Source of the DNA: Archangiaceae bacterium
GTDB taxonomy: Bacteria > Myxococcota > Myxococcia > Myxococcales > Myxococcaceae
Direction of reading: 5' to 3'
Length of the DNA stretch: 24,749 nucleotides
Assembly: GCA_043750125.1 (NCBI GenBank)
Contig: JAYVCD010000426.1
Coordinates: 1 to 24,749, forward strand
Shown here: positions 10,526 through 13,500 of the stretch, in pieces
Numbering within the stretch: position 1 is the first letter of the stretch
How the letters are laid out: the number at the start of each line of letters is the position of its first letter
Program-made: the position numbers

Positions 10526-13500
10526 GCTGAAGAAAGGCACGCCCGCTTCGCCCGCGACCGCGCGGGCGAGCAAGGTCTTGCCCGTTCCCGGAGGTCCCAT
10601 CATCAACACGCCCTTCGGAATGCGTCCGCCGAGCTTGGTGAATTTTTTCGGATCTTTGAGGAAGGCGATGATCTCTTCGAGCTCTTCTTTGCACTCGTCG
10701 ATGCCGGCCACGTCAGCGAAGGTCACCTTGTTGTGGCTCTCGGAAAGCAGCTTCGCTTTCGATTTGCCGAACGTCATCGCCTTGCCGCCGCTGCCCTGCA
10801 GCTGCCGCATGAAGAAGATGAAGAAGAGGAAGAGGAAGACGACCGGCATCCACTGACTCAAGATCGTGAGCCAGATGCTGTTCTGCTCGGCGTTCTCGAA
10901 CTTCACGTCGACGTTGTCCTCTTTGAAGTCCTTGAGGATCAGCGCATCGGCGACCGGGCCGGTCGAACGGAACTTCTCGTTCGTGTCGACAAAGCTGCCC
11001 GAGTACACGTTGCCTTTGATGGCGACGGACGTGATTTTTTTGTCCTTCACCTTCTTCTGGAACGAGGTGAAGGTCAGTTCCTGCACCTCTTCGCCCGTGT
11101 GCGAGAAGAAATTGTAGAAGGCAACGAAGAGGATGATCAGAATCACCCAGAGACCGATGGTCTTGTAGCTTGAACGCACGATTTGAAACCCCTTCGCGTA
11201 GCCCCGGATTCCCGAATCCTTCCGGACTATTGACGACTCACATCGACGGAACCACTTCGCAGACCGATTCTATAACGCATACTACGCGCCTGTGCCCGTA
11301 GCGGGATGCAAGTTCCGCAACGCCGCAGGCTCGGCGCTCAACCACCCTTCCCGGTTCACCAGCCAAAGCTCTCTGGGCAACGTGGCCGGGCGCCCCTGGC
11401 TGACCGCCTCGAGGATGTCTTCAATCAGGGGTGCGTCCACTTCAAGTTTGTTCCCGCTGAGCCACTGGGCGATCACTCTTCTTTGAATGGGCCGCGAGAG
11501 CGCCCCGAGCCCGATGGCGTCCAGAGTCCCACTTCGACTTACCCGGTGCAGCGCGGCCGTGGCCCATTGCTCGAGCAGGGCCTCGTCTTCCCCCGCATAC
11601 TGGGCAAAGCGGGCCAGGTGCTCGGCCACCTTTGGACCCGCGGTCGATTCGAAGAGCGGCAGCAGCTCGCGGCGAACCCGAACTCGCAAGAATCTGGGAT
11701 CCACGTTCATCGGGTCTTCGATGAACGGCTCGTTCAAAGCCGCCAGGTAGGAGCGCACCTGATCGCGGGTGAGACTCAACAGCGGGCGAATCACGCCTCC
11801 CAGCCGAGCGTGAATCGCGCTCGCTCCTCCCAGCGCTGAGCCACGCGCCAGGCGCATCAGGACGGTTTCCGCCTGGTCGGACGCCGTGTGGGCGGTGGCG
11901 ATCAGCTCCAGTCCACGCTCGTTCTTGATCGCTGCGAGCTCGGGGTAGCGAGCGTCCCGAGCCCGCTGTTCCAGTCCTGCCCCGTCGAAGAGACTCAAGC
12001 GACGGGCGTGGGCGACCAGGCCAAGGCTCTGGGCGCGGTGAATCACCCCTGCGGCTTCCGCGCTGGATTCCGCCCTCAACCCGTGATCCAGGGTCGCCAC
12101 TTCCACCCGCATGGCCAGCCTTTCGGCGTGGCGGGCGAGGACGAGCATCAAAGCCGTCGAATCGGCTCCACCCGAGACGGCGAGCAAGATTGATTTTTGG
12201 GCTCCGCTGAGGCGACGCACTGCGTGAAGGGCCGTTTCCTCAAAGCAGCGAAGTGCCGCAGCGTTATGATCTGGTTGAGGATTTGACATCGGGTCTTCCT
12301 TTTGGCAGCCGACCTTGCTCAGCCGCGGCACCGCACTTATGATCAGGAGGTCTTGGCTGTCGGAATGATCGTCGTGACGCATCGTTCATTGATTGAAGAT
12401 TCGATGTTGGGCCCAGGGGTCCCCCCCCTCCCCCTCTGGGCTCACGGGACTGGAACAGAGTGATCTGCTTCCGGTCCCTCTTTTGGGAGCGCCCCGGCGG
12501 GATAGCAACCGCTCGGGGCGCTCGTTTTTTTTCCTACGGTTGTCGAGAGTACCAGTCGACAGCGGCGCCCTTCGTCGTGTCGGGGCTGCACTGCAGGCTG
12601 CCGCCGGTCTGGCGCCATCCGAAACGAGCCAGCTGGGGCGAGACGATTCGTCCGGCGTCGGCCCCGCGCGGGAAGACATTCGCCAAGGGGGTCCCGCCGT
12701 CAGGCAAAGAGCCCAGCAGCGTCTTCGCAGGCCACTCGATGTCCGCGACGTAGAGCATCTGGCAGGGCGCTCCGATCGCAAGCTCGTCCGGAGGGGTCAG
12801 CCTTTCCAGCGGAATCGTCGCCGCCGCGATCGCGCTTCCTTTCAAGAAGATGCGGACCACCGGTTTGGGCGGGGCGAAGCATTTGCCTACGCCTACCCCA
12901 GCGTCCCCCCTCGGGGCGCTGTCGGCTACGCAGCGTTGCCCCGAAGTGCAGCTGCAGCCCAGACCATCCGCGCAGTCCGTGCCCCCGTCGATGATGCAGG
13001 CCAGAGGGGCCACCTGAACGCGAGCGTCCTTGAAGTAGTGGACCAGGACCTTGTAGGTGCAGTTGGTGGTCGCGCACTTCGGATCATTTTCGGGATAATT
13101 GAGCGAGACGTTTTCCAGCAAGGTGCCCGAGCCGGTGTCGTCGATGTTGAGCCGCGGGTCGTCGGGCGTGCCCACGTTGCCCCAGTCGAAGTCGAAGCTC
13201 GGGGTATTTGCCTTCTTGATGACCGAATAGCCGTTCACGTCGCCCGAGGTGTGGCCCGCGTCGCCCGCTTCGAAGAAGGCGAAGACTCCGCTGAAGGGAT
13301 CCGCAGGCTGGGTCGCCGCCGAAGGCCGCACCAGGTGAAGGTCGAGATCGACCTCCCCGAAACCCGGCCACTGCAGCTGGGCGACGAGATCCTGCTTGAG
13401 CGCGACGGCGAACTTCATCGTCACTGCCGTCGCGTGCATCTGCACGTCTTTGACCGTCAGCTCGAGCGTGTACTCGCCTGTGACGATCGGCCGCAGCGTC

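Follow-up and report, generated by a model that had tools for sequence, protein, structure and literature searches.

A C-rich-loop RNA gene of Myxococcus, Anaeromyxobacter and their relatives is a previously uncatalogued small regulatory RNA

The C-rich-loop RNA gene carried by Myxococcus, Anaeromyxobacter and their relatives is a genuine small regulatory RNA that was previously uncatalogued. Here, we describe its copy in a 24,749-nucleotide contig of an Archangiaceae bacterium (the window) together with its orthologues in related genomes. The explanation that we favor, with moderate confidence, is that it acts as an ECF-driven, trans-acting anti-Shine-Dalgarno RNA of about 139 nt, which would be stable, made under stress and able to repress several mRNAs.

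Architecture of the sRNA gene

The transcribed region spans positions 12394–12532 of the forward strand (about 139 nt) and folds as three hairpins with a U8 terminator at its end. The genome-wide survey's note had placed a three-hairpin sRNA gene, closed by a terminator, at 12362–12540(+), and both the gene and its terminator are found there. Upstream lies a −35-like element of ECF type, GGAAT (12362–12366, +), followed 17 nt further on by a −10-like (C)GTT (12384–12386, +), both recognized through the motif GGAA[T/A/C]-N16-19-GTT upstream of the orthologues. Judged by the distance from the −10-like element, the 5' end is predicted, to within a few nucleotides, at the start of a short A/U-rich leader (12394–12407, +).

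The leader is followed by hairpin 1 (12408–12444, +), in which the fold shows a 12-bp stem and a 13-nt loop, UCCCCCCCCUCCC (12420–12432), the proposed seed. Hairpin 2 (12446–12478, +), defined by fold and covariation, is variable in sequence. It is followed by a conserved and partly single-stranded CU-rich stretch (12475–12486, +), a possible second seed, which reads CCCUCUUUUGGG here versus CCCUCUUUCCGG in most Myxococcaceae-type copies; its columns are at least 90% conserved in alignment A1 and unpaired in the fold. Hairpin 3 and U8 (12487–12532, +; hairpin 12487–12523, T8 12525–12532) make up the intrinsic terminator, which is visible in the fold as a hairpin plus U8 and went unflagged by a simple terminator scan because its stem is bulged. 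A sigma-70 promoter scan of positions 11000–14000 returned zero sites.

With its own conserved promoter and intrinsic terminator, the sRNA gene lies neither inside nor continuous with a coding gene. Coding candidates in the region were rejected. For a small peptide (19-codon frame, ATG at 12404), the start codon is not conserved in relatives and the changes in C-run length would shift the frame. A long forward-strand ORF (12393–13637) has no Pfam match and runs antisense to a 710-aa gene with Pfam matches. The source genome holds a single copy of the sRNA; elsewhere, tandem double copies were seen in two genomes, and one MAG has a second copy away from tilS.

Fold and covariation

The forward strand folds with a minimum free energy of −77.7 kcal/mol (z −4.93), equalled by 0 of 200 shuffles, and the fold of the reverse strand is weaker (−67.8 kcal/mol, z −3.82). 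An alignment of 58 sequences, made independently of the survey, yielded 38 predicted pairs, 18 of them with compensatory changes, nearly the same as the 38 and 19 claimed before. Pairing amounted to 95.0% observed versus 86.8% shuffled, with 0 of 500 shuffles reaching it on all five measures, which reproduces the earlier result (95.9% versus 87.1%, 0 of 500, five measures); slid controls of this test gave 37–64%. Within hairpin 1, 99.9% of cells are paired and both-side changes occur at two pairs, while such changes are found in 8 of 11 pairs of hairpin 2 and in 8 of 15 pairs of hairpin 3. Covariation supports all three helices.

Some parts of the earlier description had to be narrowed. The 13-nt loop, which had been called invariant, is present here and recurs among the orthologues, but its C8 run is shortened to C7 or C6 in some lineages, giving a pyrimidine-only loop of the form U-C6-8-U-CCC, and the top of the hairpin 1 stem is altered by compensating changes in genera g57 and g58. 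Likewise, the three-hairpin form attributed to the whole order does not extend to Anaeromyxobacter-type copies, which measure about 80 nt and have two hairpins (21 pairs, 6 compensatory). The 44-nt core of stem and loop retains 83–100% identity across families where TilS reaches merely 36–60%, and the core is conserved better than the neighboring proteins.

Distribution and genomic neighborhood

Among 151 genomes of the order, 110 contain DNA matches to the sRNA. A CM built here and run over 151 phylum genomes gave the same counts as the survey had reported (f1 20/21, f7 8/9, f3 1/1 and f4 2/2), with one weak match outside the class and a score of 64.9 bits for the copy in the source genome. 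The exact 26-mer again occurred in at least 119 stretches under the same genus names, those listed including Myxococcus, Corallococcus, Archangium and Anaeromyxobacter. As a whole, the sRNA is present in families f1–f8 and f10, including non-fruiting Anaeromyxobacter, and the distribution claimed as order-wide is in fact class-wide.

The locus is marked by tilS (a PP-loop ATPase, Pfam PF01171; 11282–12289, −), which lies divergently upstream of the sRNA in 105 of 110 loci, a firmer association than the 48 of 80 loci on which the fixed place had been proposed. The usual downstream neighbors are same-strand homologues of cdbA and cdbB; in M. xanthus, tilS is MXAN_4360 and cdbA is MXAN_4361. A cdbA homologue lies 151–336 nt past the C-rich loop in 93 of the 110 loci and about 2.3–2.5 kb downstream in 6; it was not found in 9 loci with at least 1.5 kb of downstream sequence, and the remaining 2 were too short to judge. 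Neither of two f10 copies has cdbA beside it. The earlier statement that both neighbors lie on the other strand is thus correct for this window but does not extend to the 93 loci with an adjacent cdbA.

In the window, tblastn placed the two homologues at 14765–15138 (+), where they are 92.5% and 71% identical to CdbA of M. eversor. Here, cdbA is about 2.2–2.3 kb from the sRNA, with the 710-aa gene, convergent, in between, and has its own promoter-like site, TTGACC-N17-GATAAA, just upstream. The form TTGACC-N17-GATAA(C/A), 3' of the sRNA terminator, is kept in the other lineages looked at. The sRNA stays beside tilS even at loci with a distant cdbA. The conserved promoter motif, the covarying helices, the terminator and the linkage to tilS without a near cdbA support an independent gene.

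RNA-library evidence

The orthologue L013 is covered by contigs of four RNA runs from four studies. These contigs are assembled, come from a relative and give neither ends nor strand, and uncovered parts of L013 (e.g. 2206–2300) carry no meaning. In run X6, the summed word depth was 13,184–14,815 over hairpins 1 and 2 versus 407 for the cdbA contig (about 30-fold), to be read in the light of possible DNA carry-over and of the fact that depth cannot rank genes. The X6 contigs begin at position 1488 of L013, and one has unrelated letters before 1487, 10 nt past the GTT, although contig starts cannot prove a transcript start. One contig of run X13 extends from the sRNA through cdbAB, and read-through is therefore possible.

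The promoter and a candidate sigma factor

The ECF-like promoter motif described in the survey is present, and the same motif is found at a conserved ECF sigma gene. Upstream of the sRNA, GGAA[T/A/C]-N16-19-GTT occurs in 104 of 138 distinct regions; families f8, f3, f2 and f10 have it too, with a different spacer sequence. The source genome has 48 sigma-70 region-2 matches, only one of which, at 3687–4295 of contig C252, has GGAAT-N18-GTT just upstream; the M. xanthus orthologue of this sigma is 68% identical. The best NCBIfam match of this sigma is SigH_actino (171 bits, below the cut-off), and the gene downstream of it matches the anti-sigma RsrA/zf-HC2, a membrane-anchored zinc finger (HxxxCxxC). 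This sigma was found in 139 of 151 order genomes. Outside f1, 19 of 20 orthologues have the GGAAT/GTT motif upstream; within f1, where sigma promoters match the pattern more poorly, 11 of 30 do. Promoters recognized by different ECF groups also look alike, which qualifies the link to this sigma.

The motif comparison supports the assignment of the sRNA promoter as ECF-type, with the same motif as the putative own promoter of a conserved, order-wide SigH/SigR-like ECF sigma gene. A conserved stress sigma factor appears to activate the sRNA; both the sigma that would read the promoter and the inducing stress are what we infer from the shared motif.

Comparison with known sRNAs

An Rfam search of the window gave no match at gathering score, and no orthologue attains the gathering score of any family. 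The claimed absence from Rfam is overstated in that sub-threshold matches to C-rich-loop sRNAs do occur. The best of them in the window is ar14 (RF02344; 30.3 bits, E 2.3e-4, end to end), which is separated from the sRNA by its gathering score of 58.8 and scores 26.8 bits on orthologue L152. The best matches, all sub-threshold, are three-hairpin sRNAs with C-rich loops. Orthologues match sX13 (Xanthomonas), BjrC68 and ncS54 below threshold as well, and share with them several hairpins and C-rich loops; RsaE/RoxS and 6C are further multi-hairpin C-rich-loop sRNAs. Since different orthologues match different families, none at gathering score, the likeness is one of build, not of descent.

The cuckoo/ar14 RNAs (NfeR1 of Sinorhizobium; CcsR1-4/RSs0680 of Rhodobacter), as described in PMC4615179 and PMC10746234, resemble the myxobacterial sRNA in their size of about 120–140 nt, adjacent hairpins and terminator, in an ultraconserved pyrimidine loop containing CCUCCC and similar to an anti-Shine-Dalgarno motif, and in stems that vary via compensating changes. 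These accounts present the CCUCCUCCC loop as an anti-Shine-Dalgarno motif and cuckoo/ar14 as stress-induced, a behavior that we infer for the myxobacterial sRNA. A cuckoo RNA is defined in PMC4615179 by 2–4 hairpins next to one another that all bear the loop motif CCUCCUCCC, whereas here the C-rich loop is confined to hairpin 1 and has the motif UCCCCCCCCUCCC, or more generally U-C6-8-U-CCC. Unlike ar14 and cuckoo, which belong to alpha-proteobacteria, the named records among the matches listed are Myxococcus, Corallococcus, Archangium, Anaeromyxobacter and similar genera of Myxococcota. The myxobacterial sRNA occupies a fixed locus in single copy, unlike the cuckoo copies, which are presumably paralogous and lie on several replicons (PMC4615179), and its promoter is predicted to be ECF-type, whereas that of NfeR1 is described as sigma-70-type (PMC10746234).

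Pxr (RF01812), the developmental sRNA of Myxococcus and the sole Myxococcus sRNA family to arise in the Rfam scans, shares with the new sRNA its host organisms, three stem-loops and a C-rich loop in the first. It differs in its upstream motifs, and its model, which has a gathering score of 80, gives the sRNA only 13.8 bits. The Pxr-like RNA of the source genome lies at a separate contig, C31 (53.9 bits), in keeping with the earlier statement that Pxr is located elsewhere, and Pxr is confined to f1 (22/24 in f1, 0/24 in f7, 0/23 in f8).

The enterobacterial sRNAs MicA, RybB and MicL depend on an ECF sigma (the sigma-E regulon) and add repression to a regulon that otherwise activates. Similarly, the motif in the sRNA promoter is that of a stress ECF sigma, which would also autoregulate its own gene. 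There is no sequence relation to RybB (12.4 bits; gathering score 40), and in contrast to the sigma-E case the sigma resembles SigH/SigR and has a ZAS-type anti-sigma, the dependence on this sigma being predicted from the promoter sequence.

Proposed mechanism and alternatives

We propose that the sRNA would be driven by its own ECF-type promoter, GGAAT-N17-19-GTT, and that its transcript would end at the intrinsic terminator. The promoter would most likely be read by the order-wide SigH/SigR-like ECF sigma, partnered by the membrane-anchored zinc-finger (HxxxCxxC) anti-sigma, and the motif shared by the sRNA and the sigma gene suggests that the sRNA would be made when stress releases this sigma. 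The pyrimidine-only loop U-C6-8-U-CCC, and probably also the CU-rich stretch past hairpin 2, would next anneal to G-rich ribosome-binding regions in several mRNAs. Pairing would lower translation of the target mRNAs, as proposed for cuckoo/ar14 (NfeR1, CcsR), and this analogy is the basis for suggesting that the C-rich loop pairs with Shine-Dalgarno sequences and represses. The M. xanthus sRNAs Pxr and MXnc1 are described as contacting mRNAs near the Shine-Dalgarno sequence in the TRIC-seq preprint (10.1101/2025.09.11.675593). In the source genome, loop-complementary 8-, 9- and 10-mers near start codons (15, 1 and 0) were no more frequent than in a reversed control (9, 1 and 1), and the RNAduplex energy at start regions was similar to that in CDS interiors (−9.63 versus −9.25 kcal/mol), as the survey had also reported; both scans are crude, with approximate gene starts, and short seeds could escape them.

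If the RNA lacked trans targets, it might act in cis as a leader or attenuator of cdbAB, the ECF promoter and terminator forming a stress-controlled read-through switch into both genes. Attenuators classically have this layout, a structured RNA that ends in a terminator and precedes a gene, and the closely following same-strand cdbA of 93 loci and the X13 contig would fit it. We nevertheless consider this quite unlikely, given that the linkage to tilS is tighter (105 versus 93 of 110), that cdbA is about 2.3 kb away in this window, behind a convergent gene, and in six other loci, and that it was not found within 1.5 kb or more in nine loci, nor at the two f10 copies. Moreover, cdbA has its own conserved site 3' of the terminator, run X6 is about 30 times deeper over the sRNA than over cdbA, and an alternative anti-terminator pairing was not seen. 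The strong conservation of the entire hairpin 1 raises another thought: conservation of the 44-nt core extends to its stem and exceeds what simple seed pairing needs, and a protein or other fixed partner is therefore possible. The poly-C-loop hairpin could recruit or titrate a KH, S1 or cold-shock-type protein or an Hfq-replacing chaperone, in line with target scans that show no enrichment and with the description of M. xanthus as lacking Hfq (10.1101/2025.09.11.675593). However, synteny links no candidate protein to the sRNA, the stem accepts compensating changes, the C-run varies in length, and known sRNAs of like build are described as working by pairing (PMC4615179, PMC10746234), so that we hold a protein-binding or decoy role to be rather doubtful.

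A diverged paralogue of Pxr, acting in the switch from growth to development instead of in stress, would fit the three-hairpin build whose first loop is C-rich, as is that of the Pxr-like RNA of the source genome (UUUCCCCCCACC), and the end-to-end alignment of the Pxr model (25.9 bits on orthologue L137). A published MrpC/FruA binding site within MXAN_4360 (tilS) would also fit; a row for MXAN_4360 giving the MrpC peak position was not found in the supplements of PMC4320627. Such an origin appears improbable in view of scores far under the Pxr gathering score, different promoters, the restriction of Pxr to f1 against the presence of the sRNA in f1–f8 and f10, and its occurrence in non-fruiting Anaeromyxobacter. 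The element might finally act as DNA, with the opposite-strand G-run serving as a G-quadruplex or protein site in the tilS promoter region and the RNA being incidental. Its position on the strand opposite to tilS, about 100–130 nt upstream of where that gene starts, and its conserved homopolymer tract are compatible with this, but covariation maintains RNA pairing in hairpins 2 and 3 without conserved sequence, the promoter motif and the terminator are both oriented, the forward strand folds better than the reverse, and the RNA-library depth is high, all of which make a DNA-level role very hard to credit.

Beyond the preferred reading as an anti-Shine-Dalgarno RNA, a much broader scenario, speculative and in our judgment rather unlikely, would cast the sRNA as the non-coding branch of an ECF stress response that is ancient and shared across the class Myxococcia, comprising a SigH/SigR-like sigma, a ZAS anti-sigma in the membrane and, for several lineages, ftsH. 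It would then be a hub regulator working without Hfq and the ancestor of the developmental gatekeeper Pxr, which would have arisen by duplication and rewiring within one family, with the extra copies as snapshots of duplication.

Wider implications

The sRNA is much more widely conserved than Pxr (f1–f8 and f10 versus f1 only), and the family is worth adding to Rfam. It provides a simple way into the post-transcriptional control of stress in social, high-GC bacteria that lack Hfq. In our literature search, M. xanthus sRNA candidates besides Pxr were named only in the TRIC-seq preprint (10.1101/2025.09.11.675593); a survey of M. xanthus ncRNAs in Mol Omics (Whitworth & Swain 2020) is cited in PMC8538405. 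The sRNA is possibly the same as the TRIC-seq candidate MXnc1. If so, it is the hub already described as touching mrpC and pilA near their Shine-Dalgarno sequences, and the structure, promoter and distribution data presented here complement the interactome data; if not, the sRNA is an additional conserved regulator.

The ECF sigma/anti-sigma pair, with its sigma in 139 of 151 genomes searched, provides a testable upstream regulator. A scan of the source genome for GGAAT-N17-19-GTT gave 223 sites, 39 of them upstream of ORFs, against 18 sites in a reversed control that is unfair in composition because it contains TAA. Pfam analysis of 38 proteins downstream of motif sites gave a mixed set with no clear theme, which includes PspA/IM30, MreC, ExbB/TolQ, a TonB-like protein, an S41 protease, PNPase, LeuRS and L18, among others.

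Architecture of the RNA gene

The window carries a real, conserved small-RNA gene at 12394-12532 on the plus strand, a compact unit between the start of tilS (11282-12289, minus strand; Pfam PP-loop) and the end of a gene whose 710-aa product combines ASH/HYDIN-like Ig domains with PKD-like ones (12534-14666, minus strand). Upstream, a -35-like GGAAT (12362-12366) is separated by 17 nt from a -10-like GTT (12384-12386), both on the plus strand. A short, A/U-rich leader connects the GTT to hairpin 1 (12408-12444; 12-bp stem, 13-nt loop UCCCCCCCCUCCC), followed by hairpin 2 (12446-12478), a CU-rich stretch, and hairpin 3 (12487-12523) with eight T behind it. 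The plus strand folds at -77.7 kcal/mol (z -4.93), a value equalled by none of 200 shuffles, and the minus strand more weakly (-67.8 kcal/mol, z -3.82). Sequence and fold thus bear out the location and the three hairpins given in the genome-wide survey's note. Simple scans detected no sigma-70-type promoter at the RNA and failed to recognize hairpin 3 as a terminator, its stem being bulged. The gene is present once in G000, the genome holding the window.

Covariation and structural variants

To assess the structure, we aligned 58 three-hairpin sequences, hand-picked from 87 distinct ones after dropping near-duplicates and three two-hairpin rows. RNAalifold assigned 38 pairs, 18 of them with compensatory changes, which reproduces the compensated structure of 38 pairs reported earlier. 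In this alignment 95.0% of cells are paired against 86.8% after shuffling, and on each of five measures all 500 shuffles fell short of the real alignment, although kinship alone can let sequences beat such shuffles without structure. The stronger structural argument comes from the controls with slid partners, in which 37-64% were paired, together with the pairs showing double changes, eight in hairpin 2 and eight in hairpin 3.

The loop, previously described as invariant, does vary: by hand count among the 150 matches listed, the C-run is C8 in 124, C7 in 23 and C6 in 3, and in genera g57 and g58 the top of the stem is altered by compensating changes (GGGG/CCUC to GGAG/CUUC). The three-hairpin form, proposed for the whole order, holds for the Myxococcaceae type but not for Anaeromyxobacteraceae and families f5 and f10, where hairpin 1 is followed directly by the terminator hairpin (about 80 nt in total; 21 pairs, 6 compensatory). 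Tandem double copies occur in G001 (L164, G001:C117:28090-28630) and G002 (L163, G002:C14:96800-97350), with the hairpin 1 copies about 90 nt apart and the first G002 copy lacking a terminator of its own. Furthermore, one MAG holds a second copy away from tilS (locus L072, besides L046).

Distribution across genomes

A DNA search with window 12340-12540 found matches in 110 of 151 order genomes (f1 43/44, f7 32/43, f8 18/34, f5 4/4, f4 7/13, f3 4/9), and the core common to the matches, 12405-12448, is 83-100% identical. The exact 26-mer was again found in at least 119 stretches, with the genus names reported before; among the matches listed, record titles include Myxococcus, Corallococcus, Pyxidicoccus, Citreicoccus, Archangium, Cystobacter, Hyalangium, Vitiosangium and Anaeromyxobacter. 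The looser pattern GGGG-T-C6-8-T-CCCCCTC is present in 204 of 401 phylum genomes (including the unpublished genome G275, on which no claim solely depends), all within f1-f8 or f10, which belongs to the same class but to a different order and has matches in two of five genomes. It was found in none of the 118 genomes of other families, and the reversed control pattern matched nowhere. A covariance model built independently from the two-hairpin form and searched over 151 phylum genomes returned the tallies of the earlier model (f1 20/21, f7 8/9, f3 1/1, f4 2/2) as well as f10 1/1, with a single weak match of 26.6 bits beyond the class. The looser pattern is missing from all three genomes (G025, G277, G328) of g4, a genus of f1 with small genomes (2.1-2.7 Mb), and in G025 neither BLAST nor the covariance model detected a copy.

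Genomic neighborhood

The claim of a fixed place divergent from tilS is confirmed: 105 of 110 oriented loci have tilS upstream in divergent orientation (three others are too short, two lack tilS), and the same is true in f10. Downstream, 99 of the 110 loci have a same-strand CdbA homolog, 93 of them within 151-336 nt of the C-loop and six at about 2.3-2.5 kb; in nine loci no homolog was found within 1.5 kb or more, and two are too short. In the window, the cdbA and cdbB homologs (14765-15138, plus strand; 92.5% and 71% identity to M. eversor CdbA) are separated from the RNA by the inserted 710-aa gene. A similar gap of about 2.3 kb was seen in G301, of genus g57, and at six loci from the 26-mer set.

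This arrangement bears on whether the RNA is a leader of cdbA. The start of cdbA in the window is closely preceded by a TTGACC-N17-GATAAA site belonging to this gene, and similar sites precede cdbA in M. eversor and g57/g58. Since the RNA remains beside tilS when cdbA is displaced, and cdbA retains a promoter of its own, the RNA is a separate gene and not a cdbA leader, while transcription may read through from the RNA into cdbA.

The M. xanthus tilS gene is MXAN_4360 (Supp. Table 1, PMC11928866), and the available text of PMC7156744 describes MXAN_4361/4362 as cdbA/cdbB, encoding c-di-GMP-binding DNA-binding proteins of which CdbA is essential. An MrpC ChIP-seq site with cooperative FruA binding is reported "within MXAN_4360", whereas all other such sites lie upstream of developmental genes (PMC4320627). 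The site could pertain to the RNA or else to the promoter region of cdbA.

RNA-library contigs

Public runs were searched with L013:1400-2300, from an orthologous locus, and matching runs were kept as contigs. In total, 23 runs from 11 studies matched (0.19-0.42 of sampled words each), 15 of them recorded as RNA. Four RNA runs from four studies, aligned to L013 with a minimum likeness of 85%, all cover the RNA. Run X6 gave 26 contigs, many of 47-60 nt over 1488-1590 (leader to hairpin 2). In one contig, 23 unrelated letters immediately precede 1487, a position 10 nt after the locus GTT. The summed word depth of the run over this stretch was 14,815 and 13,184 in the two central bins versus 407 for the cdbA contig; contigs give neither ends, strand nor level and may include DNA carry-over, making this a hint, not proof, that the RNA is abundant. 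In run X13, a single contig (1458-2176) spans the RNA and cdbAB.

Promoter motif and candidate sigma factor

The ECF-sigma-like promoter motif noted before stands: GGAA[T/A/C]-N16-19-GTT is correctly placed in 104 of 138 distinct upstream regions, where we roughly estimate a chance rate of about 1/100 per region, and it recurs with different spacers in f8, f3, f2 and one f10 copy. Because GGAAT-N18-GTT is the consensus of actinobacterial SigR/SigH-type ECF promoters, we searched G000 for sigma genes. Among 48 sigma-70 region-2 matches, a single gene is closely preceded by GGAAT-N18-GTT, with GGAGG and a GTG start coming after the motif. It encodes a 203-aa ECF sigma factor (G000:C252:3687-4295, minus strand; locus L179:2185-2796) whose best NCBIfam match is SigH_actino (171 bits, under the 251 cut-off). 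The next gene (L179:1372-2163, minus strand) encodes a putative anti-sigma partner with a zf-HC2 domain and a match to RsrA (42 bits, under the 62.5 cut-off). This protein has HxxxCxxC and, as judged by eye, one hydrophobic span and then about 150 residues; given that span, it is probably membrane-anchored. We make no claim for thiol stress as the inducing signal.

Orthologs of this sigma factor occur in 139 of 151 order genomes (E <= 1e-30), the best match per genome showing 55-78% identity when the 100% of G000 to itself is set aside, a degree of conservation unusual among ECF sigma factors. The motif lies within 160 nt of the start in 19 of 20 orthologs outside f1; six of these 20 come from genomes without the RNA in the DNA search, and five of the six carry it. 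Among f1 orthologs, 11 of 30 fit the pattern and the rest are degenerate, e.g., GGGAT-N18-GTT. From the shared motif, we infer that this factor would act at the RNA's promoter. The same motif, as GGGAAT-N18-GTT (11187-11213, minus strand), lies between tilS and ftsH in the window, 40 nt before a candidate ftsH start, and 27 of 67 loci have GGAA[T/C]-N17-19-GTT 5' of ftsH, most of them of Anaeromyxobacter type with the site about 70 nt away. Therefore, ftsH may share its sigma factor with the RNA.

Possible function and relation to known RNAs

Both the loop and the segment following hairpin 2 consist solely of pyrimidines; they include CCUCCC and CCCUCUUU, complementary to ribosome-binding sites of the GGAGG type. 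Absence from Rfam holds at threshold; a search of a 166-base query with laxer filters did return sub-threshold, end-to-end matches to ar14 (30.3 bits, E 2.3e-4; gathering score 58.8), ar7 (24.3), BjrC80 (19.2) and Pxr (13.8), and 12 orthologs gave scattered sub-threshold matches to ar14, BjrC68, ncS54, Pxr and sX13. The likeness is one of build, namely several hairpins and a C-rich loop. In the available text on the cuckoo/ar14 family, its 2-4 hairpins carry the loop CCUCCUCCC, which is interpreted there as a motif of anti-Shine-Dalgarno type (PMC4615179, PMC10746234).

As in the survey's own duplex scan, two target tests in G000, both with crude starts, showed no enrichment at start regions: loop-complementary 8-, 9- and 10-mers numbered 15/1/0 versus 9/1/1 for the reversed control, and duplex energies equalled those inside genes. 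Short seeds would escape both tests. The RNA is a C-rich-loop sRNA, probably of the anti-Shine-Dalgarno type, under an ECF-type promoter, and its inducing signal and targets are what we infer beyond this.

The TRIC-seq preprint (10.1101/2025.09.11.675593), as far as available, names three M. xanthus candidates, and these names appeared only there within the accessible text of the literature searched. Its main text describes MXnc1 as "from an intergenic region" and pairing near the Shine-Dalgarno sequences of mrpC and pilA, and prints no coordinates. With calibration points from print (MXAN_4965 = RS24110, MXAN_3211 = RS15550, groEL2 = RS21695), arithmetic places RS24205 near MXAN_4984 and RS10995 near MXAN_2265, with tilS at MXAN_4360. 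Full-text literature searches did not turn up any description of an sRNA from this locus. The RNA is provisionally a new sRNA family and may be MXnc1.

Pxr does lie elsewhere in G000, as the survey had it: a Pxr-like RNA (53.9 bits, below the Rfam 80) sits at G000:C31:12179-12285 (minus strand; locus L001). Pxr matches are confined to f1 (22/24; f7 0/24, f8 0/23), apart from two weak ones in f4. G025 carries cdbA and a weak Pxr-like match. The Pxr-like RNA of G000 shares a C-rich first loop (UUUCCCCCCACC) with the RNA but differs in its upstream region, where TGGCAT-N5-GTGCT resembles a sigma-54 site. A common origin of the two RNAs is possible.
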